Assembly (NCBI GenBank): GCA_963833555.1
Contig: CAWHYB010000007.1
Span: 388,739 to 452,738, forward strand
Direction: 5' to 3'
Length of the DNA: 64,000 bases
Source of the DNA: an uncultured Actinomycetes bacterium
Lineage (GTDB): Bacteria; Actinomycetota; Thermoleophilia; UBA2241
Positions within the stretch are counted from its first letter, which is position 1. Each line of letters opens with the position of its first letter. Below the pieces are notes generated by a model that saw only the letters and a list, made by a program, of their open reading frames with translations, was not told where the DNA came from and searched no databases. Below, one piece after another: positions 4,745-46,368 of this stretch. The position numbers and the translations under genes were made by a program.

Positions 4745-4852
4745 TCCTGAGGGATCGAGGCGGCGCGCGCTCGCGCGCGCCGCAGACGGGCGGGGGCGGC
4801 CGCACGGCCGCCCCCGCCCGATCCATCTTTGCCGCCGTGCGCATCGACTAGG

Positions 4853-11519: not shown

Positions 11520-11672
11520 GCTCGACCCCTCCAGGATGGGTTGGCTCCCTGTTCATCCTCGCGGGGATCGGCGGTGGCCGGACTCGTCGATGAGGGCCCA
11601 ATAGGCGCGCGTATCCCCCGTTCAATCTCTATTCGACAAGTTGGGCTTGTATCCTGAGAGGGAAAGTCGCGG

Positions 11673-25373: not shown

Positions 25374-25543
25374 GGCACCTGTGCGTGCACCTGGCCTGGC
25401 CCGAATCGCTTGGCCAAGCTGGCAGGTGTCTAGAACGAGATTTGCCCCTGTGCGTAGTGATAAAGCGGTGCGGTTTGTTAAGGATTGTGAAGGCGAAGCC
25501 GTGCTGCGGCGCAAGCCGAGACACGACGGTCGAACGTTGGGAG

Positions 25544-27150: not shown

Positions 27151-27990
27151 GCTCGTGCCGAGACTCGGCACCTCGCCGAGCTCGCCGATGGCGGCGGCGC
27201 GGCGGTAGAACTCGAGCCAGGCCGCGGCGGTACTCGGCGGTGAAGCCGTACTTGAGCTGATCGAAGTAGTGGTCGAGGTAGGCGTCGCTGAAGTCGTAGA
27301 GCTGCGCCGCCGCGGCCGCCGTCTCGAGCGGATGGGCGGCGCAGCGGTCGCGCGAGGCGACCAGCGCCGCCTCGATGGCGCGGGCCTCGTCGGCGCGCTC
27401 GTCGAGGAACTCGCGGCGCACGGCGCAGACGGCGTAGACCATCGGCAGGCCGGTGACGAGCGCGCCACTCCTCGCCGAGGTCGTAGCTGTGCGGGTAGAC
27501 GCCGGCGCGCAGGATGTACAGCGCCTCGTCGCCGATCAGCAGCAGCCCGTCGTAGTCGGCCAGCGCCTCGGCCAGCGGGCCCTGGCGCGGCGCCGAACGA
27601 CGGCTCGATGCCCCACTCGCGGCAGAGCACCTTGAGCAGGCAGACCGAGGTGGCGCTCTTCTCGGTGAGCGGCGACGCTCTCGATCTGCGTCGCGCGGGA
27701 TCTGCGTGAAGAGCTGGATCGAGTCGACGGCGCCGAACGAGCTGATCGAGATGCCGGGCAGCAGCGCGAGCGCGTCGGCGTGGCGGGCGAACTCGATCGA
27801 CGACGGCAGGGCGACGTCGATCTCGCCGGCGACCAGCAGGCGCGTTGAGCTGCGCCGGCGTGCCGTCGACGACCTCGGCCTGGTACCCCAGCCGCGCCAG
27901 CTCCTCCTCGAAGTGGCAGTAGAGCGGGAAGCAGTTGACGAACTCGATGCGGCCGACGCGCGCGGCGCCGGCGCCGGCGTCAGCGCTCAC
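27150..27990 (-). CDS. mqnA: chorismate dehydratase (MqnA-like); frame-interrupted
   Basis: RVGRIEFVNCFPLY, SATSVCLLKVLCREWGIEP and LDHYFDQLKYGFTAEYRRGL. GTG 27990 overlaps the mqnE stop (GTGA). The 3' end is approximate. Confidence 0.65.
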
Positions 27991-29121
27991 GCCGGCTCCT
28001 CGTCGTAGCGGCGCACGACGTTGTAGAGCGTGTCGCGCTCGACCGGCACGCGGCCGGCGCCGCGGATCACGCGCACCAGCTCGTCGCGCGTCAGCTCCTG
28101 ACCGGTGTCGACGCCGGCGGCGTGGCTGATCTTCTCCTCGACCACGGTGCCGTCGAGGTCGTTGACCCCGAAGGCGAGCGAGACCTGGGCGAGCTTGAGG
28201 CCGACGTTGATCCAGAAGGCCTTGACGTGGCGGAAGTTGTCGAGCACGAGGCGGCCGACGGCGAGCATCTTGAGGTCGTCGTAGCCGGTCGGGCCGGGCA
28301 GCTCGGTCAGCCCGGTGTTGGCCGGCTGGAACGAGAGCGGGATGAAGGCGTTGAAGCCGCCGGTCTCGTCCTGCAGCTCGCGCAGCCGCAGCAGGTGGTC
28401 GGCGAGCTCGGCCGGCGTCTCGACGTGGCCGTAGAGCATGGTGGCGTTGGACTTGAGGCCCGACGCCGTGGGCGGCGCGCATGACGTCGAGCCACTCCTC
28501 GCCGCTGATCTTGCGCTTGCAGATGAGGTCGCGCACGCGGCCGCTGAAGACCTCGGCGCCGCCGCCCGGCAGCGAGCCGAGCCCGGCCTCCTTGAGCTCG
28601 ACGAGCATCTCGCGCACCGCCTTGCCCGCTGATGCGGGCGAGGTGGGCGATCTCGCTCGCCGTGAACGCCTGGATGTGGACGTCGGGCGCGAGCTCCTTG
28701 AGGCCGCGCATCATCTCGAGGTAGTAGTCGAAGGGCAGGTCGGGATGCTCGCCGCCGACGATGTGGATCTCGGTGATGCCGCCGGTGAGCGTCTCGCGCG
28801 CCTTGTCGAGCACCTCGTCGACCGAGAGCGTGTAGGCGTCGGCGTCGCCGTCGTCGTGGCTGAAGGCGCAGAAGAGGCAGCGGTTGCGGCAGACGTTGGT
28901 GTGGTTGATGTGGCGGTTGCAGATGAAGTAGACGTCGTCGCCGACGGCGCGGTGGCGCACGAAGTCGGCCATCGCGCCGAGCGCGAGCAGGTCGGTCGAG
29001 CTCGACAGCAGGTCGCGGCGTCGGCGCGCCGACAGGCGCTCGCCGCCGCGCCACCTTGTCCCAGACGTGCTGCGAGCCCGGCGCGCCGCCAGGCGGTCGA
29101 TCTGCTGTCGTCCGAGCTCAT
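27987..29121 (-). CDS. mqnE: radical SAM aminofutalosine synthase (MqnE-like); frame-interrupted
   Basis: NRHINHTNVCRNRCLFCAF cluster; IHIVGGEHPDLPFDYY, LKSNATMLYGHVE, FIPLSFQ, LAFGVNDLDGTVVEEKI. Confidence 0.65.
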
Positions 29122-29178
29122 GTCACTCCCAGACTAGCGGCTGCCGGCGCATGCTCGACGGTTCGCCCGGCTGGCGGG

Positions 29179-30171
29179 TCAGCTGTAGCGGTCGACCACC
29201 GAGCCGGCCAGCTCGTCGAGCAGCTCGCGCTCGACGCCGCCCGGACAGTCGGCCAGCCGGCTGCGGGCCTCGTCCATGAACGCCAGCGCGGTCTCGCGGG
29301 CGCGTTCGATCGCACCGCTCGGCCAGCACATCGTCGACGACCACGCCGCGAGACAGGTCTCGTCGTCGCGGCAGCGCGGCCAGGCGCGGCCCGATGTCGG
29401 GCCGCGCCTCGAGCGCCAGCACGATCGGCAGCGTCACCGTGCCGTCGCGCAGGTCGGCGCCGCGCCGCTTGCCGGTACGCGCCTCGTCGCCGGTCAGGTC
29501 GAGGATGTCGTCGAAGATCTGAAACGCCAGGCCGAGCGAGTCGCCGAAGGCCCCGAGCGCCGTCGACCGTCTCGTCGGCTCAGCCCGGTGAGCAGCGCGC
29601 CGAGCCGGCAGGCGGCCGCGAAGAGGTCGGCCGTCTTGAGCCGGCAGCGCCGCAGGTAGTCGTCGACGGTGACGCGTCGTGCGAAAGGCGTCGCCGGCCT
29701 GCAGCCGCTCGCCCTCGGAGAGGCCCCAGGCGACCTCGGCTGAGCAGCGCCACGGCAGGCGCGTCGCCCGTGCCGGCGAGCTCGGCGAAGGCCGCGCGAG
29801 CAGGTAGTTGCCGGTCGACGACGGCCATCTCGTCGCCGTAAGCGCGGGCGACGGTCGGCCGGCCGCGGCGCAGCTCGGCGCCGTCGAGCACGTCGTCGTG
29901 GACGAGCGTCGCCATGTGCAGCAGCTCGACCGCGGCGGCGGCGCGCAACACCGGCCCGTCGAGCGGGCCGGTGTCGCGCGCCGCCAGCAGCACGAGCAGC
30001 GGCCGCAGGCGCTTGCCGCCGGCGGTGAGCGTCGAGGCGGCCGGCCTCGCAGAGCCGCCCGGGCATCGACTCGACGACGCTGCCGAGGCGCTCCTCGACT
30101 GCGGCGAGGCCGCCGGCGACGCGGTTGCGCTGTGCGGCCGAGCGCCAGGAGAGGATGTCTGCCGGCTTCAC
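29179..30171 (-). CDS. polyprenyl diphosphate synthase (trans-IPPS, HepT/IspB-like); frame-interrupted
   Basis: First DDxxD ([18 protein letters not shown]) and second motif ([20 protein letters not shown]). GTG 30171 overlaps the menG stop. Confidence 0.75.
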
Positions 30172-30989
30172 GACCGCGCCGTCGCAGGCCGTCCACGGGC
30201 TGCCACGGGCGCATCGCCGACGTGCAGCGCCATGGCGCCGAAGCCGAAGCGCCGATAGCGCACGTTCCGCAGGCCGGCGCGCGCGCATCACGGCCGCCAG
30301 GCCCGTCGGCGTCGGGGAACGAGCGGACCGAGGCCGGCAGATACGCGTAGGCGCTCGGCGTCGCCGGCGACCAGGGCGCCCAGGGCGGCACGACCACGCT
30401 CGAACCAGATGGCGTGGAAGCGCCGGCCGAAGGCGCCGGCGCGGCGTCGTCGCCTCGAGACAGACGACGCGCGCCCCCGGGCGCAGCCACGCGCGACCAT
30501 CTCGGCGAAGGCGCGGTCGAGGTCGGCGACGTTGCGCACGCCCCAGCCGACCGTCACGGCGCCGAAGGTCGCGTCGGCGAAGGGCAGCGCGAGCAGGTCG
30601 CCGGCGAACGAAGCGTACGGCAGCGCCCCGCGACGGCGCGGGCGGCCTTGGCGCGCGCCCGCGCGAGCATCGCCGCGCTGAAGTCGAGCCCGGTGACGGC
30701 GCGCGGCGGGATAGCGGCGCGCGCAGCGCCAGCGTGAGATCGCCGGTGCCGCAGCAGGCGTCGAGCAGCGCTGTGCGCCGGCGGCGGCGCGGCGGCGACG
30801 CGCCGCCGCCGCGCGCCAGCGGCGGTCGAGCCCGGCCGTCATCAGCCGGTTCATGAGGTCGTAGCGCGGCACGATGCGGTCGAACATCGCGGCGATGCGC
30901 TCGGGGTCGCGATCGGGCTGGGTCGCGCGACCATCCGTCGCCGTCGCCGTCGCCCTCCGCAGACCCGGGGGGCGATGGACATCGGTCAC
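30168..30989 (-). CDS. menG: demethylmenaquinone methyltransferase (UbiE/MenG); frame-interrupted
   Basis: MFDRIVPRYDLMNRLMTAGLDRRWR, LLDACCGTGDL, FGAVTVGWGVRNV and the GAMALHVG ending. GTG 30989 overlaps the ubiX stop. Confidence 0.75.
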
Positions 30990-31593
30990 TGCGGACCCTC
31001 CCACGGCGGCGAGAGGCGCTGCTCGAAGCCGAGCGCCGCACAGCACCTTGCCGACCACGAAGTCGACGACGTCGTCGAGCGTCCGCGGGCGCGTGTAGAA
31101 GCCCGGCATGGGCGGCACGATCAGCGCGCCCGCGCGGCGCGCCTCGAGCAGGCGCTTCAGGTGGATCTCGAGAGCGGCGTCTCGCGCGGCACCAGCACGA
31201 GCGGGCGGCCCTCCTTGAGCGCGACGTCGCCGGCGCGGTGGATGAGCGTGCGCGTCGTGCCCAGCGCGATGTGGGCGACGCGTCGACAGCGAGCACGGGC
31301 AGACGACCGCGGCGTCGGGGAAGTTGCTGCCGCTGGCGACCGGCGCCTCGAGGTCGTCGGGGGCGAAGACGCGCGCCTCGGCGCGGGCGGCGGCGAGGAA
31401 CGCCGCCGTCACCTCGGCGCGCTCCGCCAGCGCCGAGCTCGAGCTCGTGGCGCAGCACGGCGAGGCCCATGTCGGAGACGCAGAGCGAGAGCTCGCAGCC
31501 GCGCCGCCGCGAGCGCTCGACGAGCCGCAGCGCGTACGGGGCGCCGCTGGCGCCGGTGACGCCGACGAACAAGCTGGCGGGTGGTGCGATCAC
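30986..31593 (-). CDS. ubiX: flavin prenyltransferase UbiX; frame-interrupted
   Basis: N-terminus [17 protein letters not shown]; [24 protein letters not shown]; C-terminus [13 protein letters not shown] recovered after a 1-nt shift. Confidence 0.75.
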
Positions 31594-31654
31594 GAGACTC
31601 CTTCGATGGCGTCGGCACCCGGCGCCGCCGCGAGCGGCCGCCGGAAGACTCCCG

Positions 31655-32931
31655 CTAGTCTACCGCTCGCGCGACGGCCCCATGTGGGACCGACTGCGTT
31701 GACGAGCGCCGGAGCCGCGCCACGACCGCAGGCCCGGCGCAGCGGCCAAGCTGCCGCTCGTCAGTGTGGCGGACTGCCCGGCTGTGTGGCAGTCGCCGCC
31801 GTAGCAGCTCGCCGCGCCGCCGTCGTTGTTGCCGTGGCACTTCACGCAGACCGCGCCCTCGCGCGCGGCGTACACGAAGTGGCTGGCGATGAACGCGGCC
31901 GGGTGCGGCAGCACGACGCCGTGGCACTGCACGCAGCTGTCCGCGCCGTGGCACTTGCTGCAGAGCGCGGGATCGCTGCGTCGCGGTGGTCGGGTGCGAG
32001 GCAAGCCAGCCGGCCGGGTGCGGCATCGGGAGGCCGTGGCAGTCGATGCAGAACTTTGGGTCCTTGTCGGTGTGACACGAGGCGCAGATCTGCGCGCCTC
32101 GCTGCACGACCAGCGGGCCGTGGGACTGCGTCCAGCCCGGCGGGGTGCGGCATCGTGAGGCCGTTGTGGCACTTGGCGCAGAAGCTGCTGCGTGTGGCAC
32201 TGACGGCAGTTCGCCGGCTGGTCCATGTGCACGGTCGATGGTGATCTGCGCGGTGCCCGGCGGGCACGCCGTTGACGTGGCAGATCGAGCAGCGCTGCGG
32301 CTGGATGACGCCGTTGTGGCACTGCGCGCAGATCGACATGATCGACTGCGTGCGGCCGCGAGCCGACCGGGATCGCGGCGCCGTGGGCGACCTCGGCGTG
32401 GCAGGTCACGCACTGGAAGCCGGCCTCGCGCAGGCCCTTGTGGTTGACGCGGATGTTGCCGACGATCGATGTCGCTTCTCGATCTGGCTCTTGGGGTGAC
32501 ACTGCACGCAGTTCTCGACGCCGACGTAGGTGGTGATGCGGCCTTCTGGTAGTCGCCCCGAGATGTACTCGACGATGTGGGTCGGCCGACTGCAGGTTGC
32601 GGATGAAGTAGTTGAAGACGCCCGGCTTGGTGTGGCAGTCCTGACAGCCGACTCCCGGCCGATGGTGTTCAGACGTCTTGAACGAGGCGACCTCCTTCTT
32701 GATCACGTGACACCAGCCGCACGTGCGCGTTGTTGTTGACGACCGCGAAGCCGATCGGTGACCAGGACGAGGAGCGACGCACGACGGCCGGCGATCATGC
32801 CGAGCAGCCAGGCCCGCGGTCGATGCGGATGGCCGCATCGGCCCGCGGCGTGCGGGCCGCATCCGCCGCGCGCCTCGTCGGGCGGCGCGGCCGGCACGTG
32901 TGGCTGGCTGGTCGTCGGGTCGTCGGCTCAT
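31655..32931 (-). CDS. membrane-anchored NapC/NirT-like multihaem cytochrome c, 13 CXXCH + 1 CX4CH; frame-interrupted
   Basis: N-terminal hydrophobic anchor, then CGWCH, CQDCH, CVQCH, CVTCH, CAQCH, CSICH, CRQCH, CAKCH, CASCH, CIDCH, CSKCH, CVQCH, CVKCH and CYGGDCH. I confirmed 14 CH codon pairs on the plus strand. ATG 32931 lies 3 nt after the upstream stop. Confidence 0.75.
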
Positions 32932-32934
32932 GAC

Positions 32935-33982
32935 CTAGAGCGCGCGGTGAGGATCGAGGGTGACGGCGTCGCGGCGTCGGCGTCCACTGCGGCACGCCTG
33001 CCGGTCGAGGAAGTCGTGCGCCTGCGGGCTGCCCGACTGGTGGGCCGGTGGCACGCCTGGCAGTTGGCCTGGTCGTGGCAGTTGAGGCAGCTCGTCGACG
33101 AGGCGGCGGCCGCTTACGGCGCGTGCTCCAGCCAGTCGGCCGGGTGCGGCAGCGGCACCCGGTGACAGCCGTCGCAGTATGGCGGCTCGTCGTGGCACTG
33201 CGTGCACGACTTGAGCGCCGAGCTTCAGCGCGCTGGCTGCCGTGTGCGCGTGAGCCAGTCGTCGGCGTGCGGCATGACGACGCCGCGATGACAGTCGACG
33301 CAGTCCGGCGGCGATCCGGGGACACCAGCCGGTGACCGCACCGCCCGGTCGCGGGTGGCAGGCGCTGCAGGTCGACAGGATGCCGTTCGGTGCCGTGGGT
33401 CTTGAGCCAGTCGGCCGTGTGACGTGCTGGGCCTGGCGCCCGCCGCGCGGCGCTGACGTGACAGAGGTCGCAGCGGCTGACGCGCGACCGTGCCGTCGGC
33501 CGCGCGGTAGTGGTTGTTGTGACACACCAGGCACTTGTCCATGGTCGGGTAGCGTCCGCGAGCCCGGCCGGGCACGGCGTCGCCGTGGGCGACCGTCGAG
33601 TGGCAGGTCGATGCACTGGTAGCCGGCCTCGATCAGGTGCTTGTGGTTCACGTTGATGCCGTTCTTGGAGATCGTCGGGAACAGCTTGCGTCGGTGTGGC
33701 AGCGCCGGCACGACGCGTTGACGCACCGTGCCGAGGATCGGGGTCTCGTAGTCGCCGGTGATCTGCTTGACGGGCTCCTGCAGCGCCTCGAGCTTGGCGG
33801 TCAGGAAGAAGAACGGACCCGGCTGCGATGGCACTGCTCGCAGTTGACGCCGCTGTGTGCACGACTGTGCTGGTACGCCGACGACGCTCGGCCTTCATGT
33901 TGTGGCAAAGCCCGCAGAAGGCGGTCGTCGAGGTGGCGACCAGCGCGACGCCCGTGACCACGACGAACGCCGTGACGACCAC
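32935..33982 (-). CDS. membrane-anchored NapC/NirT-like multihaem cytochrome c, 12 CXXCH; frame-interrupted
   Basis: TM (AIVVVTAFVVVTGVALVA), then CGLCH, CEQCH, CRRCH, CIDCH, CLVCH, CDLCH, CSACH, CVDCH, CTQCH, CDGCH, CLNCH, CQACH. The true start is probably a little upstream (to about 34010) after a frame change. Confidence 0.7.
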
Positions 33983-34041
33983 GATCGCTGACGATGAGCA
34001 GGCGTCGTGTCAGATGAAGGTTCAGCTTCGCTCCCGCTCCA

Positions 34042-35229
34042 CTAGTTGATCAGTCCACCGGCAGTGGGGAAGGCGTTGTGCACGGCGCTCCTGTGGCAGA
34101 GCAGGCAGGGCAAGCCGACGGCATGGGCCGTGGCCGAGCCGTGGCAGCGCACGCAGCTCGAGCTTGACGGAACGATCTTGCGTCCGTGGAACGCGCTGCC
34201 GTGGCAGGTACCACACGTGAGCCCGCTACCGCGGCCGCTGGCATGCACCTGGAGCGCGTGGCAACGCCGGCAAGCGACCGCCGCATGGGTGACCCGCCGG
34301 GAGTGGACGATGGCGTTGCCCGCGGCCGCGTTGGTGCCGCGGTGGCAACTCGCGCATTTCGTGGCAGGGATGCGCCAGGTCGCGTGCGACATCGTGTGGC
34401 ACTTGGTGCAGGCCGGGAAGCCGGGACTACGCGTCACGCCGTGGTGGAACTGCTTGGCCTTGGTGTGACAGGTCGTGCAGGCAACGCGCCCGGCGTGCTT
34501 CTGCAGCCCCGTGTGGCAGGTCGTGCAGGCCCCGACCGCCGGACTCGTGGTGTGGACCGTCTCGCGCTGGAAGATGCCGGTCGCGCTGTGACAGTCGGTG
34601 CACGTATTCGTGCCGTAGGTCTTCGCCGCGTGGCACTTGTTGCAGGTCGCCGGCTGCACGGGGATGTCCATGCCGTTGTGGCAGGACGTGCACGCTGGCT
34701 TGACCGAGTCATGATTGGCCTTCTGCGAAGCCAGCGTGCCGTTGTGACAGTCCTGGCAAGCCGGTGCCGTGAGCGTCATGCCCGCGTGGTGGGGGCTGCC
34801 GTCGGGAGAGCTGAACCCCGTGCTCACACCATGGCACGTGGTGCACGGTGCGAAGTCGGCGCCGAGATGAGGTGTAGCACCGTGGCTGAACTCGATCGAG
34901 TAAGCCCGCTGGCTCTCGTTCCAGAGGTGACAGGTGCTCGAACAGCCTGCGCTCGTGCGCCACGCGGACGTGTCTTGGCCGGGCTGATGGCAGCTCCAGC
35001 AGGTGTCACCCGGCACCGACTTGAAGTCGCTGCCGTGACAGGCCGTGCACGACGCGTCGCTGGGGCCGGTAGCGTGGCAGTCACTGCAGGCGGTGGCGCC
35101 GTCGTGCTCCCAGGTGGTGAAGGCGTGCGCGGGCGCGGCGGTGAGCGCGCTCACCGCCGCGCCCGCGCACAGCAGCGCAAGCATGGCGACAAGCAGCGGC
35201 ACGCGACCGGCGAGGATCCTGCTGGTCAT
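34042..35229 (-). CDS. secreted multihaem cytochrome c, 16 CXXCH + 1 CX3CH in 395 aa
   Basis: Uninterrupted ORF segment with SD GAGGGGG 7 nt before ATG 35229. Sec signal peptide ending AAPAHA. Motifs were counted directly in the translation. Confidence 0.85.
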   Translation of the reverse strand: MTSRILAGRVPLLVAMLALLCAGAAVSALTAAPAHAFTTWEHDGATACSDCHATGPSDASCTACHGSDFKSVPGDTCWSCHQPGQDTSAWRTSAGCSSTCHLWNESQRAYSIEFSHGATPHLGADFAPCTTCHGVSTGFSSPDGSPHHAGMTLTAPACQDCHNGTLASQKANHDSVKPACTSCHNGMDIPVQPATCNKCHAAKTYGTNTCTDCHSATGIFQRETVHTTSPAVGACTTCHTGLQKHAGRVACTTCHTKAKQFHHGVTRSPGFPACTKCHTMSHATWRIPATKCASCHRGTNAAAGNAIVHSRRVTHAAVACRRCHALQVHASGRGSGLTCGTCHGSAFHGRKIVPSSSSCVRCHGSATAHAVGLPCLLCHRSAVHNAFPTAGGLIN

Positions 35230-35291
35230 CGGGGAACCCCCTCGTAGACGGCAGACAAGCGCCACTCTACCAAGTCCTTTACGCCGGAGCA

Positions 35292-36188
35292 TCACAGCGA
35301 GATCGCCACCGACCAGACGATGAAGGCCGCAAGCGCCAGCGCCGCCAGGATCGCGACGAAGGTGATGACCCACGACACGACGTTGCCCACGATCGCGCCG
35401 CGCCCGCTGGGCGCCAGGACGATGGCCTCGTCGAGGGTCCCCTCGCGGATCCGGTTGGCGTATTCCAGTGGCCGCTCGAGACGGTAGTGATCGACCGGGA
35501 TCGAGCCGGTGAAGATGACCTTGTCGATGGGGAACGAGCCGGGCCGCCCGTGAGCGCTGAACAGGTGCACGAAGATGAAGATCACGCCCATCGCCAGCAG
35601 CGCCTCGTTGGAGTGGATCACGAGCGCGATGTTCAGGGCGATGCCCGGAAGGAACTTCGTCGTGGTCACAGGGAACCACATCATGAAGCCGGTCGCGCCG
35701 ATGATCACCGTGCCCGCCATCATCGACCAGAAGTCGAACTTCTCCCAGTACGTGAAGCGGTTGAACTGGGGGAACGGGCCCCTGCCGAAGAACCACCGGA
35801 ACATGCCGATGATGTCCAGCGCGTCCTTCTTGCTGGGCACGATCGAATCCGGGCCGAAGATCCGGCCGCGGACCTTGACCACGTGCACGCCCATGTAGCC
35901 GAGCTCAAGCAAGAAGTAGAGGATCGTGACGAGGGCCGCCAGACGATGCAGCACGCCGGCCGCCGTGACGCCGCCGATGGCGCCCATCACCCAGTGCGCC
36001 CAAGCGGCGTCCTTGTACTTGAGCGGCATGCCGGTGAACACGAGCACGGTGAAACTCGAGAGCGCCAAGAAATGCATCCAGCGATGGAACGCGTTGAAGC
36101 GCCGGTAGTGCAATCTCTCGTGCTGCTGTTTGTCAGTGCGACTTGTCGTAGAGACCTTGTCTACGACCGCGCCAGAAGTAGAGGACAC
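35292..36188 (-). CDS. FdnI/HydC-like (Ni/Fe-hydrogenase b-type cytochrome family) membrane cytochrome b
   Basis: RFNAFHRWMHFLALSSFTVLVFTG opening typical of PF01292-type cytochromes b. Further histidines lie in predicted helices (LHRLAAL, VIHSNEA, FVHLFSAH), and there are 5-6 TM helices. GTG 36188 has a GGAGGAG SD 6 nt upstream; the ORF is open to TTG 36215. Confidence 0.75.
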   Translation of the reverse strand: MSSTSGAVVDKVSTTSRTDKQQHERLHYRRFNAFHRWMHFLALSSFTVLVFTGMPLKYKDAAWAHWVMGAIGGVTAAGVLHRLAALVTILYFLLELGYMGVHVVKVRGRIFGPDSIVPSKKDALDIIGMFRWFFGRGPFPQFNRFTYWEKFDFWSMMAGTVIIGATGFMMWFPVTTTKFLPGIALNIALVIHSNEALLAMGVIFIFVHLFSAHGRPGSFPIDKVIFTGSIPVDHYRLERPLEYANRIREGTLDEAIVLAPSGRGAIVGNVVSWVITFVAILAALALAAFIVWSVAISL

Positions 36189-37008
36189 TGTGCACTCCTC
36201 CGAAGGTGAAGACAACGGCGATGAGCAGGACGTAGAACATGTACACGAGGAACACCGGGATCGACGATCGCGGTGACGTCGCGTTCACGTGGACGAGGTA
36301 GCTCGCGAATGCGGCGTTCGCGCCGGGATGGCATTTCGCGCAGGTCGCGACGATGTGCTGCTTTGAGATCGGTGCTGCGTGGGTCCGACGGCGGCAGGAT
36401 CTTGATGCGCACCGTGGCAGTCGTAGCAGGTGGCCGCGCCCACCCGACCCAGCTCGAAAGCCTTGCCGTGGTACGTGTCAAGGAAGGTCGCCGCGTGGCC
36501 GCCGTGACAGCCTTCGCAACGCGCCGTCACCTGCTCGCGGAATCGGCGGGTCGTCACGTCGACGACGGCATGCGCATCGTGGCAATCGCCACAGGTCGGC
36601 ACCTTGCCGAACTCGCCCGGCTTCAGCACAAGTCTGCCGTGGAACGAGCCGCGGTACATCGTGCCCTGCTGAGCGTGACAGTCGCCGCACGCGGTGAGCG
36701 AGGCCTGTTCGAACCATCCGCTGGTCTCTTGGGAAGTGTGCTGTCGCGACTGGAAGCCCACATGACAGCTCGTGCAGTCGAGCAGCGAGTGCAAAGAATG
36801 ATCCCAAGCGCTCGTGTCGAGGGCGATGCTCTTCGGTCACGCCGTTCACGTCGACTTGACCTTTCGCGCCAGGCCCATGACACGCGAGACAGCGGTCATT
36901 GTCACGGTTGGCCTGCGCGCCGGCGCTCGTGGGCAGGGCTGCGGTTGCGAGCGCGACCGTGATGACAAGCGCAAGCGCCAGCCGTGCAGGCGCGCGGCTC
37001 GACAACAT
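36133..37008 (-). CDS. multihaem cytochrome c, 7 CXXCH, signal peptide and C-terminal TM helix; frame-interrupted
   Basis: MLSSRAPARLALALVITVALATAALPTSAGA, then CLACH, CTSCH, CGDCH, CGDCH, CEGCH, CYDCH, CAKCH. The C-terminal helix is IPVFLVYMFYVLLIAVVFTFGGV. Confidence 0.7.
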
Positions 37009-37034
37009 CCTGGCTTGTCTGGCTACTGAGCCGA

Positions 37035-38061
37035 TCACGGTGTCGTCACCCCCAGGCGGGCATGGCAGCCGCTGCACATCGTCTGCGGGTGACAGACGAG
37101 GCACGACGCGGTGCCCTTGATGGCGACGGCGCCGTGGGTGGTGCTGCCAGTCGGCGGGATGATCGACCTGGTGGCACTGGTGGCAGAAGGTCTGCTCGCT
37201 ATGACAGCCCTGGCACGAGACGCCGTCGGCCGTCGCGGCCGGTCCGTGGCTATAGCGCCAGTCGCCGGCGAAGTGACTGGCCGGTGGCCGCGCGTGGCAG
37301 GCGTCACAGAAAGCGGCCTTGTCGTGGTGGCAGCGCAGGCAGTCGCTCTCATGGGTGAGCGCCTGGATGCCGTGTGTCTTCAGGAAGTCAGCGGGATGGA
37401 CGTTGCTCGGCGGCGGTGTGGCGTGGCAGGTGGTGCACTGGTTCGGCGCGGCCTGGCCGTTGTGGCACATGGAGCAGACGGTCATCGAGACTGTCGCGTT
37501 CGACTGACCGGGCGTGGCGTGAGAGACCTGGTTGTGGCAGTCGGCGCACTGCAGGTTGTGCATCGTGACATGCGACTGGTGGGGGATCTTGATGCCGTTG
37601 ATGACCGGCGGGAAGTTGCTCAGCTGGTGGCACTGCTCGCAGGCGGCGTCGGTCGGCTTGTGGACGCTCGCTGCCATGTCGGTGCCGGCGCTCAGGTAGG
37701 AGGCCCAGATGTTCTTGCCCTCCTGCAACCGCCAGACGATGCCGTTGATGAGGCCCGGCTCGACGTGACACTTCACACAGGACACGTCGGCGTGCACCGA
37801 GTGTTGCCAGGTGCTGCCGGCGGTCTTCATCTCGTGACACGATGTGCAGTAGCCGGACGTCGAAGTCAGCCGGACGGGGATGTAGAAGACGATCATCACC
37901 ACCGCGAGGACGCCTACCGCAGCAAGTGCGGTCAGCCACCAAGGGATGCTGCGACGAACCGGCGGGGTGCGCGTAGGCGGCGCCGGCGGTGTAGCCGGCG
38001 CCGCAGGCGTGTCGTGGCCGGACGCGTGATCCGGCTCGCGGCTGTCGCCTTCGGCTGCCAT
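37035..38061 (-). CDS. membrane-anchored NapC/NirT-like multihaem cytochrome c, 12 CXXCH; one frame change near 37135
   Basis: TM (WWLTALAAVGVLAVVMIVFYI), then CTSCH, CVKCH, CEQCH, CADCH, CSMCH, CTTCH, CLRCH, CDACH, CQGCH, CHQCH, CLVCH, CSGCH. The ORF is open to GTG 38103. Confidence 0.8.
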
Positions 38062-38116
38062 GCGCTGTGAGCCCCCTGACTCCTGTCCCTCCCCGAACAG
38101 CACTACAGTCCGAGGC

Positions 38117-38134
38117 TTGTGACGAGTGTATCAA
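38117..38134. promoter_or_regulatory. Rex-operator-like site TTGTGAC-GAGT-GTATCAA overlapping the -10 box
   Basis: Matches 10 of 14 positions of the TTGTGAA-N4-TTCACAA consensus (one half 6/7, the other 4/7). A rex gene is encoded 3.6 kb upstream on the same strand. Confidence 0.25.
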
Positions 38135-38152
38135 TCGTCAAAAGAGTGTCAA
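38125..38152 (-). promoter_or_regulatory. sigma70-like promoter candidate for the cytochrome module (TTGACA-N16-TACACT on minus strand)
   Basis: TGTCAA at 38147-38152 and AGTGTA at 38125-38130 on the plus strand. It lies in the 157-nt gap between the prenyltransferase stop and the first cytochrome gene. Confidence 0.4.
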
Positions 38153-38259: not shown

Positions 38260-39145
38260 TCAGTCAGCGAGCACGGTGACGATCACGACGACGCCGTACA
38301 GCAGGCCGACGACCCCGTTGACCGTCATGAATCCCATGCCGACCCGGCTCAAGGCCGCGTCGCGCGATGTCGACGTGCGACCACGCCAGGATCGCCGCTA
38401 CCACGCAGACAGCCGGCGTAGTAGACAAGCGGCAGTCCAAGCAGCGCGCCGGCCGTCGAGCAGGAGCGACGACTGAGCCAAGGTGAGAGAGGGCGGCGAC
38501 GAGCAGAGCTCGTCGCCGCCCGAACCTGACGGGCACCGAGTGGATGCCCTCGTCGCGGTCGAATCGAGGTCGAAGATCGCGTAGATGACGTCGAAGCCAC
38601 CCACCCACAAGCCGACGGCCACGAACAGCAGGACCGGCGACAGGGCGACGCGGCCGGTCACGGCGACCCAGGCCGCCGCCGGCGCCAGGCCGTCGGTCAG
38701 GCCGAGCGCGTAGTGGCAGAACCAGGTGAAGCGCTTCGTGTACGGGTAGGCGATGAAGGCCGCCACGACGATCGGCCACAGGTACCGGCACGGCGGCGAC
38801 AGGAAGAAGGTCGACAGCACGAGGACGCCGAGCGAGGCGGCAGTGAAGGCGACGACCTCGCCGCGCGCAGCGACGCCGGTCGGCAGCTCGCGCCCGGCGG
38901 TGCGCGGGTTGCGAGCGTCGATGCCGGCGTCGATCAGCCGGTTCAGCGCCATGGCGGCGCTGCGCGCCGCGACCATCGCCACGGTGATCCAGACGAGCGT
39001 CGCCCAGCGACGGGATGCGCTGCTCGGCCAGCACCGCGCCGGCGTACGCGAAGGGCAGCGCGTAGACGCTGTGTTCGACCTTGATGAGGCGGGCGAAGAG
39101 CGCGGGGCGTGCCGACGCCGGTGCGGGGCGTGAGGCGGATGTCAC
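38260..39145 (-). CDS. UbiA family polyprenyltransferase (menaquinone-specific, futalosine route); frame-interrupted
   Basis: LIKVEHSVYALPFAYAGAVL, NRLIDAGIDARNPRTAGRELP (Asp-rich motif), polytopic. Fragments 38264..39145 and 38398..38982. Confidence 0.75.
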
Positions 39146-39173: not shown

Positions 39174-39514
39174 CTAGCGCGCGCCGCCGTTCACGGGCCG
39201 AGGCTCGGTGCCGAACTTGGCGACCAGCCAGCACGACGAAGCCGACGATGACCGCGACGATGGCGACCACGAAGAGGATCGTGTAGAGGAACATGCTGGC
39301 GGGCTGCGCCGCTGCCCAGATAGGAGCTCACGCCCCAGCAGACGACGGCGATCGCCCAGTTGACGATCGACAGGATCCAGAAGCGGCGTGCGGTGCGGAC
39401 GTGGGGAGCGTCGCCACCGGTCGCGGCGGCTGCGGGCTCGTCGGGCCGCGCGGAGGCGGTCGGCACCTCGCCTGCGTCGCGATCGGTGGGCATCTTGTCG
39501 TCCGGCTGCGTCAT
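39174..39514 (-). CDS. small two-TM membrane protein of unknown function; one frame change
   Basis: RRFWILSIVNWAIAVVCWGVSSYL and, after the shift, MFLYTILFVVAIVAVIVGFVVLLVA. No family was recognised. Confidence 0.4.
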
Positions 39515-39610: not shown

Positions 39611-41102
39611 TCACGTGCGCCGAAACCCGAGACCCAGTTCGGCCCAGCGACGCGTCGACGCGCGCCATCGACGGCCGGGTCCATGGCGAGCTCGTCGGGC
39701 CACTCGCGGCCGTGACCTTCGTCGGGCCAGGTCCTGGTCGCGTCGATGCCCATCTTGGCGCCGTAGCCGGCCGTCGGGCTCGAGTGGTCGAGCACGTCGA
39801 GCGGCCCGTCGACGATCATCGTGTCGCGGCGCGGGTCGACGTTGTTGAACACGCGCCAGGCGACCTCGCGCGGGTCGTGTACGTCGACGTGCTCGTCGAC
39901 GACGACGACGAACTTGGTGAACATCATCTGTCCCATCCCCCAGACGCGCTCATCACCTTGCGGGCGTGACCGGGGTACGCCTTGCGGATCGAGACCACGG
40001 CGCAGTCGTGGAAGACGCCCTCGATCGGCAGCTCCAGGTCGACGATCTCGGGCAGTGTCAGGCGCAGGAGGGGCAGGAACAGGCGCTCGGTGGCCTTGCC
40101 CAGATAGCAATCCTCCATCGGCGGGCGGCCGACTATGGTGGCCGGGTAGACCGCGTCGTGGCGCATGCTCATCGCGGTCAGATGGAAGACCGGGTAGTCG
40201 TCGGCGAGCGAGTAGTAGCCGGTGTGATCACCGAACGGGCCTTCGCGGCGCAGCTCGCCCTGCTCGACGTAGCCCTCGAGGACGATCTCGGCGTCGGCCG
40301 GCACTTCGAGATCGACCGTCGCGCACGGCGCCAGCTCGACCGGCTCGCCGCGCAGGAAGCCGGCGAACATGAGCTCGTCGATGCCGGGCGGCAGCGGCGC
40401 CGTCGCGGCGTAGGTCACGGCAGGATCAGTGCCGATGGCGACGGCGACCTCGAGCCGGCCGTCGGCGGCCCGGAAGTTCGCGGCCCCATCGTGATGGACG
40501 TGCCAGTGCATCCCAGTGCTCTGCGCATCGTGGACCTGCAGCCGATACATGCCGGCGTTGCGGCGGCCCTCGCGGTCCTTGGTGATCACGACCGGCAAGG
40601 TGATGAACGGGCCGCCGTCGCCCGGCCAGGTCGTGAGTACGGGCAGCCTGCCCAGGTCGGGCGGCTCGACGACGACCTCGCGGAAGGCCGCCTTCTTCGT
40701 CGGCTTCGGCGCGAACGAGGCGAGCTCGCGCAGCTGCCCCAAGGCCTTGACCTTGCTGACCAGCCCCCTGGGCACCTGCAGCTCGACGAGCTCGCCGATG
40801 CGGGCGGCGATCTCGTCGAGTGGCGCGCCGAGGGCCAGTTCGAGCCGCCGGTACGACCCGAACTGGTTCATCAGTACGGGCAGGGGCGGTCCGGACAGCC
40901 GATGGGCGTTGCCGGGCGACGCCACGACCGGCGAGCTGTGACCCGACGCGCTCTCGGGACGCTCGAAGAGCAGCGCGGGACCGTCGGCCTTGCTCGCGCG
41001 GTCGGCGATCTCGGCCATCTCGAGATACGGATCGACGGGCGCCGTCACGACGGCCAGCTCGCCTTCGCGGCGCAGCAGCCCGACGAACTCGGCCAGCCTC
41101 AC
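39611..41102 (-). CDS. UbiD family decarboxylase (menaquinone biosynthesis type); frame-interrupted near the 3' end
   Basis: LLFERPE, GGPFITLPVVITKD, RNAGMYRLQV, FGDHTGYYS, MMFTKFVVVVDEHVDVHD. GTG 41102 overlaps the upstream stop (GTGA). Confidence 0.75.
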
Positions 41103-41767
41103 GCCGGCTCCTTGCAAGCCATGGCGGTGAGTGCGGCGCCCGCGGCGCCGGCATCGTCTGAGCCCGGGTGCTGCGCGTCGGTCTCGACCTCGTGCTCCAT
41201 GCCGAGGGCGGCGCGCAGCGGCTGTGGCCGGCGCAGTGACAGCGACGCCGCTGCCCGCCGCACGACCTGGGGCAGGCGTTCGGCGCGGCCGCGGCCGAAC
41301 AGCGCGCCGACCTCGTCGAAGACACGCAGGGCCGCGAGGCCGCTGCCGCCGGATGCCGACGATGCCATGCCGGCCACGCACAGGGCCCAGAGGTCGTCGT
41401 CGCAGGCGAACGGGCAGTCCTCGGCGCGCAACCAGGAGCAAGTCGCCATCAGCCGGGTCAGCAGGGCGATCGAATCGAGGTCGCCCGCGTCGGCGACCAG
41501 CCGCAGGCCGCTGGCATCGAGGTGGTCGCCGGCGAGCAGCCGCGTCTGCAGCGTGGTGTTCGCGCCGAGCAGGCGGCTCACTCGATAGTGGGTGAGGTAG
41601 CCCTCGTAGACGAGCTCGATGGCCAGGACGTAGGGGTCGGGAGCGGCCTCGGGCGCGAGCGCCCGGAACAGCGGCGCGTAGACCAGCGCGAAGCGCGGCG
41701 GCGGCGCCGTCGCAAACGGCGCCGCCGCGGCCCACAGCGCCTCGCGAATTGCCTGATCGTCGGCCAT
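41099..41767 (-). CDS. hypothetical protein (222 aa) between rex and the UbiD-like gene
   Basis: Uninterrupted ORF, translationally coupled at both ends (TGATG and GTGA overlaps). No family was recognised. Confidence 0.45.
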   Translation of the reverse strand: MADDQAIREALWAAAAPFATAPPPRFALVYAPLFRALAPEAAPDPYVLAIELVYEGYLTHYRVSRLLGANTTLQTRLLAGDHLDASGLRLVADAGDLDSIALLTRLMATCSWLRAEDCPFACDDDLWALCVAGMASSASGGSGLAALRVFDEVGALFGRGRAERLPQVVRRAAASLSLRRPQPLRAALGMEHEVETDAQHPGSDDAGAAGAALTAMACKEPA

Positions 41768-42423
41768 CAGAGCTCGCGATCGAGGTAGAACGACAGGAAC
41801 ATGAGCTCGCTCGAGAAGTCGACCTGGCGCACCACGACGTCGCGCGGCGCCAGCACCTTGACCGGCGCGAAGTTCAAGATGGCGCGCACGCGGCGGTCGG
41901 GCTCGAGCGAGACCACCCTGTCGATGATCGACTGGGCGGCGTGGGCCGGTACGGTGATGATGGCGATGTCGACCCGCTCGTCACGGCAGAACGGCTCAAT
42001 CTCGGCGGCGTCGCGGATGGTGCGCCCGTCGCCGAAGCCGACGCCGACCTTCTTCGGCGACGCGTCGAACATGGCGACCAGCCTGAAGCCCTGCTCGGCG
42101 AAGCCGCGGTACCGGGCGAGGGCGGTGCCCAGCGAGCCCGCCCCGATGATGATCACGTTCCAGGTGCGCTCGAGCCCGAGGCAGCGCCTGATCTCGTCGA
42201 CCAGACGGTCGACCTCGTAGCCGACGCCCCGCGTGCCGAACTCGCCGAAGTACGAGAAGTCCTTGCGGATCTGCGCCGCGTTCAGGTCGATCATCTCGGC
42301 CAGCTGCTTCGAGGACACACGCTCGAGGCCCCGGCCTTGCAGCTCGCGCAACTTGCGCAGATAGAGCGCGAGGCGCGGCACAGTGACGGCCGGCACGGCG
42401 TTCTTGTCGACGGGACGTCCCAT
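41767..42423 (-). CDS. rex: redox-sensing transcriptional repressor Rex
   Basis: N-terminal wHTH (RLALYLRKLRELQ..VSSKQLAE...AQIRKDFSYFGEFGTRGVGY) and Rossmann loop IIGAGSLGTAL. Confidence 0.85.
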   Translation of the reverse strand: MGRPVDKNAVPAVTVPRLALYLRKLRELQGRGLERVSSKQLAEMIDLNAAQIRKDFSYFGEFGTRGVGYEVDRLVDEIRRCLGLERTWNVIIIGAGSLGTALARYRGFAEQGFRLVAMFDASPKKVGVGFGDGRTIRDAAEIEPFCRDERVDIAIITVPAHAAQSIIDRVVSLEPDRRVRAILNFAPVKVLAPRDVVVRQVDFSSELMFLSFYLDREL

Positions 42424-42444: not shown

Positions 42445-43737
42445 CTACAGGCCTGCGAAAAACGCGCCGGCCGCTTCGGCCGCGCGGGCGACATCGGTTT
42501 CGGTCAGCGCCAGCGACACCATCGCCGACTCGAACTGCGACGGCGCCAGGTAGATGCCACTGTCGAGCATATGGCGCCAGTAGCGCGCATAGAGCGTTGT
42601 GTCGGCGTGGCGGGCCTCAGCGAAGCTTGTGACGGGCCCGTCACAGAAGAAGAGCGTCATCATGGCGCCGACGCGGTTGAGCGTGGTCGGCGCTCGCTCG
42701 CTGACCGCCGAGGCCGCGGCGACGAGGCCCTGGCAGACCTGCACGGCACGCGCCTCGAGCGACTCGTAGACGCCAGGTTCGGCAAGCGCCCGCAGGGTGG
42801 CGATGCCGGCCGCCATCGCGAGCGGGTTGCCGGACAGCGTGCCGGCCTGGTAGGTCGAGCCGAGCGGCGCCACCGTCTCCATGATGTCGGCGCGGCCACC
42901 GAAGGCGCCGACCGGCAGGCCGCCGCCGATGATCTTGCCGAGGGTGGTGAGGTCGGGCATCACGCCGAAGCGTTCCTGCGCGCCGCCCCACGCGACGCGG
43001 AACCCGGTGATGACCTCGTCGAAGATGAGCAGCGCGCCGGCGTCGGTACACAGCCGGCGGATCTCCTCGAGGAACCCCGGTTGCGGCGGAACGACGCCCA
43101 TGTTGCCGGCGACAGGCTCGACGATGACGCAGGCGATCTCGTCGCCGTGCGACGCGAACACCGCGCGCAGCGCCGCCGCGTCGTTGTACTCGACGAGGAT
43201 GGTGTCCGAGGTCGTGCCCTTCGTGACCCCAGGGCTGTCGGGCAGTGCCAGCGTGAGCACGCCGCTGCCCGCCGCCGCCAGGAACGGGTCGGCGTGACCG
43301 TGATAGCAGCCGATGAACTTGACCACCTTGTCGCGCCCGGTGAAGCCGCGCGCCACACGCAGGGCACTCATCGTCGCCTCGGTGCCCGAGTTGACCATGC
43401 GCACGAGCTCGACCGACGGGACGGCCTCGCAGATCAGGCGGGCGAGCTCGACCTCGAGTGCCGTCGGCGCGCCGAAGCTCGTGCCCAGGTCGACCTGGGC
43501 ATGAAGTGCGGCGACGACCTGCGGCTGTCCCCAGCCCAGGATCATCGGCCCCCACGACGAGACGAGGTCGACGAACTCGTTGCCGTCGACATCCCATATG
43601 TGAGCGCCGCGGGCGCGTGAGATGAACAGAGGATGCGGCATGCCGACACCCTTCATCGCCCTCACCGGCGAGTTCACTCCCCCGGGTATGTACTGCCGCG
43701 CCTCGTCGAACAGGCGCTTCGATGTCTCGATGTTCAA
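42445..43737 (-). CDS. hemL: glutamate-1-semialdehyde 2,1-aminomutase
   Basis: Uninterrupted 430-aa ORF with YIPGGVNSPVRA, GTEATMSALRVARG and LIFDEVITGFR. TTG start with a GGGAGGA SD. Confidence 0.9.
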   Translation of the reverse strand: MNIETSKRLFDEARQYIPGGVNSPVRAMKGVGMPHPLFISRARGAHIWDVDGNEFVDLVSSWGPMILGWGQPQVVAALHAQVDLGTSFGAPTALEVELARLICEAVPSVELVRMVNSGTEATMSALRVARGFTGRDKVVKFIGCYHGHADPFLAAAGSGVLTLALPDSPGVTKGTTSDTILVEYNDAAALRAVFASHGDEIACVIVEPVAGNMGVVPPQPGFLEEIRRLCTDAGALLIFDEVITGFRVAWGGAQERFGVMPDLTTLGKIIGGGLPVGAFGGRADIMETVAPLGSTYQAGTLSGNPLAMAAGIATLRALAEPGVYESLEARAVQVCQGLVAAASAVSERAPTTLNRVGAMMTLFFCDGPVTSFAEARHADTTLYARYWRHMLDSGIYLAPSQFESAMVSLALTETDVARAAEAAGAFFAGL

Positions 43738-45263: not shown

Positions 45264-45382
45264 GGACGGGGTCGCAGACCGTAGGTGGAGTTTCATCGTC
45301 TCGATAGAAGTATGCAGAATGGGGCGGGGGGAGGCAACGGCTGGACGCCGTTGCCTGCCCCCGCCGCCGCGACCGTCGTGCT

Positions 45383-46368
<986 letters not shown>

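Follow-up and report, generated by a model that had tools for sequence, protein, structure and literature searches.

Six cytochrome genes in a menaquinone operon

A 64,000-nt stretch of DNA from the metagenome-assembled genome (MAG) of an uncultured bacterium of the Thermoleophilia (Actinomycetota), referred to here as the window, was analyzed computationally, database comparisons included, with coordinates given as window positions unless a relative is named. The window has a G+C content of approximately 69%. On its minus strand, between the gene for an MqnP-like prenyltransferase and ubiX, lie six co-directional and tightly packed cytochrome genes, named A to F and collectively termed the module, for which a chain for electron export or uptake appears to be the best-supported reading. 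Genes A and B are separated by approximately 26 nt, B and C overlap by 56 nt, C and D are 62 nt apart, D and E 59 nt apart, and E and F abut. These gene calls agree with the first-pass annotation of this DNA, which had described co-directional, closely packed genes between the UbiA-like gene and ubiX. The six genes are as follows:

38061–37035, minus strand: gene A, 12 CxxCH motifs, one indel at 37146
37008–36133, minus strand: gene B, 7 CxxCH motifs, three indels
36188–35292, minus strand: gene C, cytochrome b, intact, 56-nt overlap with B
35229–34042, minus strand: gene D, 17 haem motifs (16 CxxCH and one CSSTCH), intact
33982–32928, minus strand: gene E, 12 CxxCH motifs, 19 indels and one apparent stop
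32931 to approximately 31761, minus strand: gene F, 14 haem motifs (13 CxxCH and one CYGGDCH), 14 indels

Only C and D are uninterrupted open reading frames (ORFs) within the module as deposited. The stop codon of F is likely to lie at 31763–31761; the lower module end of 31655 given previously had been taken from an uncorrected frame.

Haem motifs and integrity of the genes

Read as deposited, the minus strand of 31655–38152 encodes 59 CxxCH motifs together with one CSSTCH and one CYGGDCH, and no CxxCK was found when its frames were read. All 59 CxxCH motifs lie on the minus strand, and the remaining 57.5 kb of the window contain two across all six frames, giving a density of approximately 9 per kb in the module compared with 0.03 per kb elsewhere. 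This enrichment greatly exceeds what chance would produce. The motifs are distributed among the three minus-strand frames, and the phase of the G+C content at third codon positions (GC3) jumps repeatedly.

Loci of relatives used for comparison are designated by L-numbers, with L001 being a contig from ENA on which all six genes are present and intact, their order and flanks being unchanged. Frameshift-aware alignment to the L001 orthologues recovered 12 haem motifs in A, 7 in B, 16+1 in D, 12 in E and 13+1 in F, a total of 62, and the L001 proteins A–F themselves carry 12, 7, 0, 16+1, 12 and 13+1 motifs, again 62. The count of 62 motifs plus a cytochrome b made in the first-pass annotation was thus reproduced. 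One motif of E (C/STCH near 33612) is interrupted by an indel in the window sequence.

The first-pass annotation had allowed for the possibility that the frame disruptions are real and that the genes are dead in this organism, the module being a decaying relic. Frame switches are indeed numerous, with 1 in A, 3 in B, 19 in E and 14 in F (37 in these four genes as deposited) and none in C and D. However, the neighbouring genes are affected to a comparable degree: ubiD, ubiA, ubiX, ubiE, hepT, mqnE, mqnA and mqnC have between 3 and 11 each (listed below) with 0 in hemL and rex, and frame changes also occur in hemB, ahbD, a PatA_N gene, an MFS gene and an amino-acid permease gene. Indel density is comparable in hemB, ahbD, the permease gene and the mqn genes, the latter being the sole menaquinone pathway genes seen in the window. 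Furthermore, once the indels were removed, 0–1 apparent stops remained and identity to L001 was 66% for A, 61% for B, 74% for C, 55% for D, 73% for E and 66% for F (61–73% in the four interrupted genes), with every haem motif retained. The pattern consists purely of indels, as expected of long-read assembly error. Since the damage is of this one type, spares every haem motif and affects the mqn genes equally, the frame breaks are best read as the product of an unpolished long-read assembly and not as gene decay, and a relic is extremely improbable. It should also be noted that the frame-switching indels span 23700–49000 and are densest at 25500–33900, with hemL, rex, C and D being clean; this patchiness suggests locally poor polishing.

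In an alignment of 11–13 Thermoleophilia orthologues, which are 31–59% identical overall, nearly every haem motif is invariant, which points to purifying selection on haem binding. The six genes are therefore considered, on this comparative evidence, to be functional genes of the uncultured Thermoleophilia bacterium. A practical consequence of the many indels in the deposited record is that automatic annotation will under-call the genes of the module.

NrfH/NapC-type anchors A, E and F

The PF03264 NapC/NirT region was detected in A, E and F with 44.6–49.7 bits against a cut-off of 24.1, the scores for E and F being obtained through their L001 orthologues. Protein A consists of an N-terminal transmembrane (TM) anchor and a 4-haem NrfH/NapC-like head (PF03264 at 4.6e-13) followed by four di-haem repeats of the form CxxCH-CxxCH-HPxxW, giving 12 haems. 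It matched the structure of NrfH (2j7a_C) with an E-value of 2.6e-11 and retains the haem-1 motif CxxCHxM. Eleven of its 12 motifs are kept in 13/13 orthologues and the first in 6/13, the low figure for the first motif probably arising because some tblastn matches begin after it. Protein E is TM-anchored and built like A, with 12 haems and a first motif of CGLCHNM which again conforms to CxxCHxM. Protein F has a Pro-rich N-terminal tail, a TM anchor, an NrfH/NapC-like head and 14 haems, and its L001 orthologue matched 2j7a_C with an E-value of 9e-5.

Against the NCBIfam equivalogs for NrfH, NapC and TorC, A, E and F scored 15–56 bits with cut-offs of 134–478, which places them as relatives of the family and not as members. 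They are predicted to be NrfH/NapC-type single-helix anchors in which the 4-haem head has been extended by four or five di-haem repeats to reach 12–14 haems. What they have in common with NrfH/NapC/NirT/CymA proteins (2j7a chain C) is the N-terminal helix and the 4-haem head, together with the CxxCHxM of haem 1 in A and E. They differ in haem number, with 12, 12 and 14 compared to 4–5 in the family, and in the lack of an NrfA (CxxCK), NapAB, NirS or TorA partner in the loci. An NrfA-, MccA- or HAO-type catalytic cytochrome was considered and rejected, as there was no CxxCK and there were no matches to catalytic domains.

A split CbcL-type bc cytochrome

Protein B carries a signal peptide, seven CxxCH motifs and a C-terminal TM helix with a conserved His, and gave Pfam matches to Cytochrome_C7, c3 and Paired_CXXCH. 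Its haem motifs are conserved in every orthologue aligned (12/12 to 13/13). Protein C was found to be an FdnI/HydC-type dihaem cytochrome b with five predicted TM helices, for which a 100% identical database entry (P0001) and hundreds of relatives at 58–80% identity exist, one of them, at 77%, being located on L001. Its PF01292 score of 29.0 bits falls just under the cut-off of 30.1, with a precomputed PF01292 match being present in its homologues. Residues H44/H48 (helix 1), H90 (helix 2) and H201 and H217 (helix 4) are invariant, and both His ligands of TM4 align to H155 and H169 of FdnI, so that C displays the four-helix dihaem b fold of FdnI/HydC with His on helices 1, 2 and 4. FdnI (1kqf_C) was also the sole fold match in the PDB (Foldseek, probability 1.00, TM-score 0.53), obtained with a medium-confidence model (predicted local distance difference test, pLDDT, 64.5).

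To the b domains of the fused 9-haem/6-TM CbcL-type proteins of the Geobacteraceae, C shows 39–45% identity and shares long motifs such as RxFGPDSxxP and TYWEKFDF, and the TM motif F.F..vH(T/S).L(Y/W).(Y/F)R is common to B and to TM1 of the fused CbcL. The homologue of B and C in Trichlorobacter thiogenes (L052) is a single protein of 615 residues with nine CxxCH motifs and six helices, matching the published domain limits of Geobacter CbcL with its nine haems in residues 30–279 and six helices. G. thiogenes is listed as one of the CbcL homologues with more than 65% identity in the supplement of Antunes et al. (2022), and the CbcL segments printed there match L052 and, more distantly, C of the window. 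The six-helix pattern described for CbcL, with one His each in helices 1–3 and two in helix 5, is reproduced by the helix of B and those of C combined. Searches of PDB sequences with B and L052 returned only a weak match to an unrelated entry named "Cytochrome c" (28pb_A), and hence no solved structure of CbcL or CbcA.

B and C are accordingly assigned, from these sequence and fold comparisons, as a putative split CbcL-type bc quinol oxidoreductase in which the five-helix dihaem b protein is joined by a sixth, His-bearing helix from the C-terminus of B. As in CbcL (GSU0274 of G. sulfurreducens) and the related MtrH and MtoC, the multihaem c domain lies on the outer face and FeS, Mo or NiFe partners are lacking. 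The differences are that CbcL is one protein whereas B and C are two polypeptides in all Thermoleophilia orthologues, that CbcL has 9 haems (3–23 across the family) compared with 7 in B, and that the host here is an actinobacterium. A 2018 survey found no CbcL/MtrH/MtoC member in Actinobacteria, while an independent survey with hidden Markov models reported CbcL homologues in Thermoleophilia MAGs. The same split bc form, with a 9-haem subunit, was also observed in Nitrospirota MAGs.

The module can also be compared with CbcBA/Cbc5 of Geobacter (cbcEDCBA, GSU0590–0594), in which a 7-haem subunit with a C-terminal His-bearing helix, a separate cytochrome b and a large soluble multihaem cytochrome follow one another in the same order. 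The soluble component CbcC has 12 haems compared with 17 in D. CbcB has been described with 4 helices, 3 His and no CbcL homology, whereas C has 5 helices and 4–5 conserved His and is CbcL-like, a comparison made by description. Moreover, no sigma-54 BccR-type regulator was found within 10 kb in L001, L083 or the window, Rex being encoded upstream instead. With B and C resembling a split CbcL and the layout repeating that of CbcA-CbcB-CbcC, the parts are not without architectural precedent.

The secreted protein D

Protein D has a cleavable signal peptide (AHA/F), no anchor and 17 haems. Cytochrome_C7 was matched in four stretches (6e-16) along with c3 families, while the score for the NCBIfam model nanowire_3heme was under the cut-off and PDB matches to GSU1996 fragments were non-significant (E-values of 0.2–0.4). 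Thirteen of the 17 motifs occur in all lineages and the other four are lacking in roughly half of the Thermoleophilia orthologues, so that the protein has approximately 13 or 17 haems depending on the lineage. It is predicted to be a secreted, unanchored 17-haem protein of the c3/c7 type. The domain calls made earlier from the translations, namely NapC/NirT-like A, E and F, an FdnI/HydC-like cytochrome b in C, a C-terminal TM helix in B and a secreted D, all stand.

A perfect 46-nt palindrome (23-nt arms, no loop) was observed at 35125–35170 in the part of D coding for the signal peptide, 59–104 nt after the start. It is kept in L001 (11013–11058) through three compensated changes, and a 14-bp stem with a 7-nt loop is found at the same place in L083 (13944–13978), with nothing comparable in other lineages. 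This palindrome may form an mRNA hairpin between the ABC and DEF halves of the module.

Operon context and regulation

The genes on both sides of the module are those of a futalosine (mqn) menaquinone operon with rex and haem-synthesis genes upstream:

42451–43737, minus strand: hemL (glutamate-1-semialdehyde aminomutase), intact with 0 frameshifts, 78–85% identity to HemL of L001/L082 (tblastn and frameshift-aware alignment)
41773–42423, minus strand: rex (redox-sensing repressor), intact, 80–84% identity to Rex of L001/L082
39623–41096, minus strand: UbiD-family menaquinone biosynthesis decarboxylase (SCO4490 type), 3 indels
38266–39145, minus strand: UbiA-like (MqnP-type) polyprenyltransferase, 6 indels
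30995–31593, minus strand: ubiX (flavin prenyltransferase), 4 indels, L001 orthologue exceeding the TIGR00421 cut-off
30216–30998, minus strand: ubiE/menG, 11 frame switches
29182–30171, minus strand: polyprenyl synthase (hepT), 10 frame switches
27990–29121, minus strand: mqnE, 4 frame switches
27136–27960, minus strand: mqnA, 6 frame switches
between mqnA and mqnC, within 25555–30998, minus strand: GNAT gene
25555–26584, minus strand: mqnC, 8 frame switches

The L001 orthologues of the decarboxylase, MqnE and MqnC exceeded the cut-offs of TIGR03701, TIGR03700 and TIGR03699, with the decarboxylase scoring 609.6 bits against 495.9 for TIGR03701 (mena_SCO4490). MqnA was identified by Pfam VitK2_biosynth, and the window copies of the mqn genes align with indels. 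The UbiA-like orthologue of L001 exceeded the TIGR01475 cut-off and scored 262–282 bits with the MqnP models, under their exception cut-offs. The gene hemL, with Pfam Aminotran_3 present in the HemL orthologues, forms the upstream flank of the operon. Following it, rex is the first regulator encoded ahead of the mqn and cytochrome genes and lies 3.7 kb upstream of the module, its L001 orthologue exceeding the NCBIfam Rex cut-offs. The same flanking families, UbiD-type decarboxylase, UbiA-like prenyltransferase and UbiX, are present in the SCO4490–SCO4492 locus of Streptomyces coelicolor, where the ubiA-like and ubiX equivalents are, we presume, adjacent; here the six cytochrome genes part them.

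Just upstream of hemL-rex, hemB (ALAD) and a radical SAM/SPASM gene were observed at 44154–46338 on the minus strand (2863–5035 in L082). The L082 copy of the latter is of the AhbD type, an O2-independent haem b synthase, with 501 bits against a cut-off of 500, and this hints at a haem supply of anaerobic type beside the cytochrome genes. Two further conserved genes of unknown function are found in the mqn operon, at 41066–41689 and 39271–39478 in the window (4532–5302 and 6766–7173 in L001). The first, of approximately 255 aa, lies between rex and ubiD and had no Pfam or NCBIfam match; as it is clearly present also in relatives lacking the module, it is part of the operon and not of the cytochrome module. 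The second encodes a small membrane protein of approximately 135 aa between ubiD and ubiA. Elsewhere in the window, a long ORF with high GC3 at 8310–11552 on the minus strand encodes 1081 aa with a signal-peptide-like N-terminus and may represent a large secreted or surface protein. No RNA family was detected in the window with Rfam.

A sigma-70-like promoter match was detected in the gap between ubiA and A:

38125–38152, minus strand: TTGACA-16-TG-n-TACACT, consensus match

A terminator-like hairpin at 38168–38149 overlaps this match upstream of A. The element recurs at 8110–8137 of L001 with a 45-nt core which is nearly identical while the flanking intergenic DNA differs. Approximately 0.2–0.5 such matches are expected in the region by chance. 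The element was not found in more distant lineages, being common to the window and L001 only. Its conservation suggests that the module may possess a promoter of its own and be independent of mqn transcription, which may weaken the case for obligatory co-transcription with the mqn genes. A second conserved sigma-70-like match was observed at 39550–39522 on the minus strand (6730–6758 in L001), preceding the gene for the small membrane protein that lies between ubiD and ubiA.

The association with rex and with quinone genes was also seen in other phyla. In six Desulfobacterota MAGs (L032, L039, L045, L056, L063 and L079), rex stands directly beside genes for fused CbcL-like and long NapC-like multihaem proteins, and in five Nitrospirota MAGs (L015, L016, L034, L044 and L051) a UbiE-like methyltransferase gene directly follows the split 9-haem/b pair. 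These arrangements suggest that the pairing of such cytochromes with redox sensing and quinone tailoring recurs across phyla. In L063 (8831–16330), a c554-like cytochrome lies between the CbcL-like protein of 670 aa and the NapC-like protein of 729 aa, with rex directly downstream. In L016 (9035–16067), the UbiE-like gene is followed downstream by a B12-binding radical SAM gene and then by a receiver/sigma-54-type regulator.

Distribution and history of the module

A profile scan with the cytochrome b was carried out on one genome per species (GTDB). Its matches in the Actinomycetota were all MAGs, ten labelled Thermoleophilia and four belonging to other Actinomycetota, and matches with 39–48% identity were obtained in many other phyla. 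At least 12 Thermoleophilia MAGs carry the module in the mqn operon (L001–L008, L012–L014 and L083), and in every Thermoleophilia locus found the cytochromes lie inside this operon. The following layouts were distinguished:

ubiA-ABCDEF-ubiX: window, L001, L002, L004, L007
ubiD-A'B'C'-ubiA-ABCDEF-ubiX: L003, L006, L013, L014
ubiD-ABC-ubiA-DEF-ubiX: L005, L008
ubiA-ABCDEF-ubiE: L083

As ABC and DEF can occupy different slots of the operon, they are separable sub-modules. Two ABC units were observed in L003, L006, L012, L013 and L014, and the ABC trio comprises two paralogous types with b subunits approximately 60–69% and 43–46% identical to the b of L001. The loci from other Actinomycetota (L009–L011) contain larger clusters with 9–11 multihaem genes of 6–15 haems each, two cytochrome b genes and more than 90 haem motifs, and these clusters are not beside mqn genes.

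Two further loci, L082 and L084, which were found with the UbiA protein, have the same operon without cytochrome genes, in the order hemB-ahbD-hemL-rex-x-ubiD-ubiA ... ubiX-ubiE-hepT-mqnE-mqnA-mqnC-permease. Their ubiA and ubiX genes are approximately 1.8–2.9 kb apart, and the gap (11269–12627 in L082, 11244–13336 in L084) holds small opposite-strand genes, namely a pyrophosphatase fragment, a PemK toxin, antitoxin-like genes and hypotheticals. The presence of toxin-antitoxin genes in place of the module shows that the ubiA-ubiX junction varies within this clade. Synteny between L082 and the window extends over more than 25 kb, and with 84–86% identity in HemL, Rex and the permease L082 is closer to the window than L001 is. 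Neighbour-joining trees of HemL, UbiD and MqnE placed L082 and L084 beside the window and L001.

The module had been described in the first-pass annotation as inserted into the operon, and a recent genomic island moved horizontally into the ubiA-ubiX gap of this genome would account for the variable junction, with two close relatives having toxin-antitoxin genes there, and for the different slots used by different lineages (ubiD-ubiA, ubiA-ubiX and ubiA-ubiE). Such an event is nevertheless very improbable. The trees of the cytochrome b and of D reproduce the groupings of the hemL, ubiD and mqnE trees, the arrangement is common to at least 12 MAGs, and the GC content of 65–69% and the GC3 are like those of the surroundings. 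In the window module no terminal or flanking repeats, integrase, tRNA or compositional break was found, the repeats present being the recurring CxxCH and PHPxxW coding motifs. The congruence of module and flank phylogenies argues that the module was present in the ancestor of the clade and that some lineages lost it. In the simplest history, the module would have been placed in the operon long ago and then inherited vertically, being rearranged and duplicated on the way and lost in the lineage of L082 and L084. Of the earlier description, the variability of the site therefore stands, whereas an insertion specific to this genome does not, and "inserted" should rather read as "anciently embedded, variably retained".

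Proposed function

It is proposed, with a probability of roughly 60%, that the module encodes a conduit for electrons from the quinone pool to the outside of the cell, with outward flow and with the reverse direction being possible. Two kinds of interface with the quinone pool are predicted, namely the split CbcL-type dihaem b and the NrfH/NapC-like heads. Menaquinol would be oxidized at the membrane through B and C and/or through A, E and F, and the electrons would reach D, located in the wall space, by way of the 7- to 14-haem chains anchored at the external face of the membrane. The final acceptor would be extracellular or wall-associated, such as Fe(III)/Mn(IV) minerals, humic quinones or a partner cell. 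By analogy with FdnI, the quinone site of the b-type interface would face the cytoplasm, while that of the NrfH type would lie at the outer face. Outward flow through the former would then spend membrane potential and suit low-potential acceptors, an argument which has been made for CbcL, and the NrfH-type interface would release protons outside. The two interface types would, by analogy with ImcH, CbcL and CbcBA of Geobacter, serve acceptors of different potential, and Rex, together possibly with a dedicated promoter upstream of A, could tie expression to the NADH/NAD+ state.

This proposal draws support from the closest characterized relatives of B and C (two of the six genes), which are quinol:cytochrome oxidoreductases of extracellular electron transfer; CbcL, CbcBA and ImcH are genetically defined menaquinol oxidases for extracellular acceptors of different potential. 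The chains of the Gram-positive Firmicutes Thermincola potens and Carboxydothermus ferrireducens follow a similar logic of membrane quinol-oxidizing and secreted multihaem proteins with no outer-membrane porin. The same applies to Parvivirga hydrogeniphila, a cultured Fe(III)-reducing actinobacterium of the Coriobacteriia whose multihaem clusters encode membrane and secreted multihaem proteins and no porin, with one cluster including Rex. The latter case also revises the earlier statement that no characterized system with this architecture is known in high-GC Gram-positives. The likeness seen here is one of described logic, and these systems differ from the module in that they are not embedded in quinone biosynthesis and possess identified surface reductases (OcwA/OmhA), which are missing here. 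A link of the cytochromes to oxidation of the prenylated flavin mononucleotide/UbiD cofactor was rejected, as the cytochromes lie outside the cytoplasm.

A number of observations weigh against the proposed conduit. In A the quinol-site residues of NrfH are changed, with K82 replaced by R and D89 by N, and the first motif of F (CGWCHVI) is without the Met of CxxCHxM. The module holds no terminal surface reductase, sortase/SLH anchor or porin. The WWD motif of the cytochrome c maturation protein CcsA is absent from the window and from 15 actinobacterial loci (within 10 kb), and we infer the capacity for maturation from motif conservation only. No Rex operator (TGTGAA-N6-TTCACA or the N4 form, with at most 2 mismatches) was found near the operon, the two matches obtained lying within coding DNA and being at chance level. 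The close relatives without the module indicate that it is not essential for menaquinone-based respiration. One paper calls the Thermoleophilia Gram-negative, which makes a Gram-positive-type wall uncertain. Finally, the CbcL/MtoC/MtrH family occurs in both Fe(III) reducers and Fe(II) oxidizers, which is compatible with flow in either direction.

This last point bears on a reading in which the same hardware carries electrons inward, from Fe(II), reduced humics, a cathode or a partner cell to menaquinone, with the FdnI-like b acting as half of a redox loop which builds membrane potential. No sequence feature tells the direction, and it is general knowledge that FdnI of formate dehydrogenase-N, whose fold and ligands C matches, carries electrons to a quinone site on the cytoplasmic side. 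Menaquinone, however, is of low potential, so that Fe(II) at neutral pH would be a poor donor without reverse electron flow, the genetically characterized relatives act as quinol oxidases, and the loci give no hint of CO2 fixation or lithotrophy. Inward flow is considered unlikely on this balance.

As stated in the first-pass annotation, no catalytic partner, porin or CxxCK haem was found in the module, and within 10 kb in the relatives only mqn and haem-biosynthesis genes were found. The module might instead be a general quinol:cytochrome c hub which replaces bc1 or alternative complex III and feeds reductases or oxidases encoded elsewhere, for nitrite, N-oxides, sulfur compounds or oxygen. 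The NapC/NirT/NrfH/CymA-type proteins, to whose family A, E and F can be matched, are generally known to serve periplasmic reductases, the module has no terminal surface reductase of its own, and its location among the core quinone genes would be consistent with a housekeeping function. Yet 62 haems in five proteins, including a free 17-haem protein, are far above the needs of a hub, no reductase gene is linked in any of approximately 14 loci, and close relatives dispense with the module. B and C, moreover, belong to a family tied to extracellular electron transfer. A hub of this kind is regarded as unlikely, and as less probable than inward flow through the proposed conduit.

Novelty and implications

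The building blocks of the module come from known families, and the presence of CbcL homologues in Thermoleophilia MAGs had been flagged earlier. New are the assignment of B and C as a split CbcL, the trio of extended NrfH-type proteins, the conserved position of the module inside the mqn operon, the genome pairs with and without it and the recurring linkage with Rex and quinone genes. No published description of the operon arrangement was found in the literature on multihaem cytochromes and extracellular electron transfer in Thermoleophilia and Actinomycetota, or on futalosine together with multihaem cytochromes. Surveys of extracellular electron transfer in the Actinomycetota have mostly missed such conduits.

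A broader view can be put forward tentatively, although it is more doubtful than the conduit itself. The mqn pathway, O2-independent haem synthesis (hemB-ahbD-hemL), Rex and the 62-haem conduit might form one inherited respiratory cassette in a clade widespread in soil, lake and sediment. Extracellular electron exchange would in that case serve this actinobacterium as a standard outlet for the quinone pool, tuned by redox state, with the two interfaces covering different potentials. If this were true, the linkage of CbcL-like proteins with quinone tailoring in Nitrospirota and with Rex in Desulfobacterota would reflect a general functional coupling across phyla.

The split CbcL and the extended NrfH-type anchors are naturally occurring variants with which the matching of quinol oxidases to the potential of the acceptor can be studied. 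The window and L001 can readily be compared with L082 and L084 in ecological and expression studies. The Thermoleophilia, an abundant class in soils and sediments, are poorly cultured, and their respiration is largely inferred. The conserved conduit provides a concrete and testable case that part of this class may respire, or draw electrons from, minerals, humic substances or partner cells.

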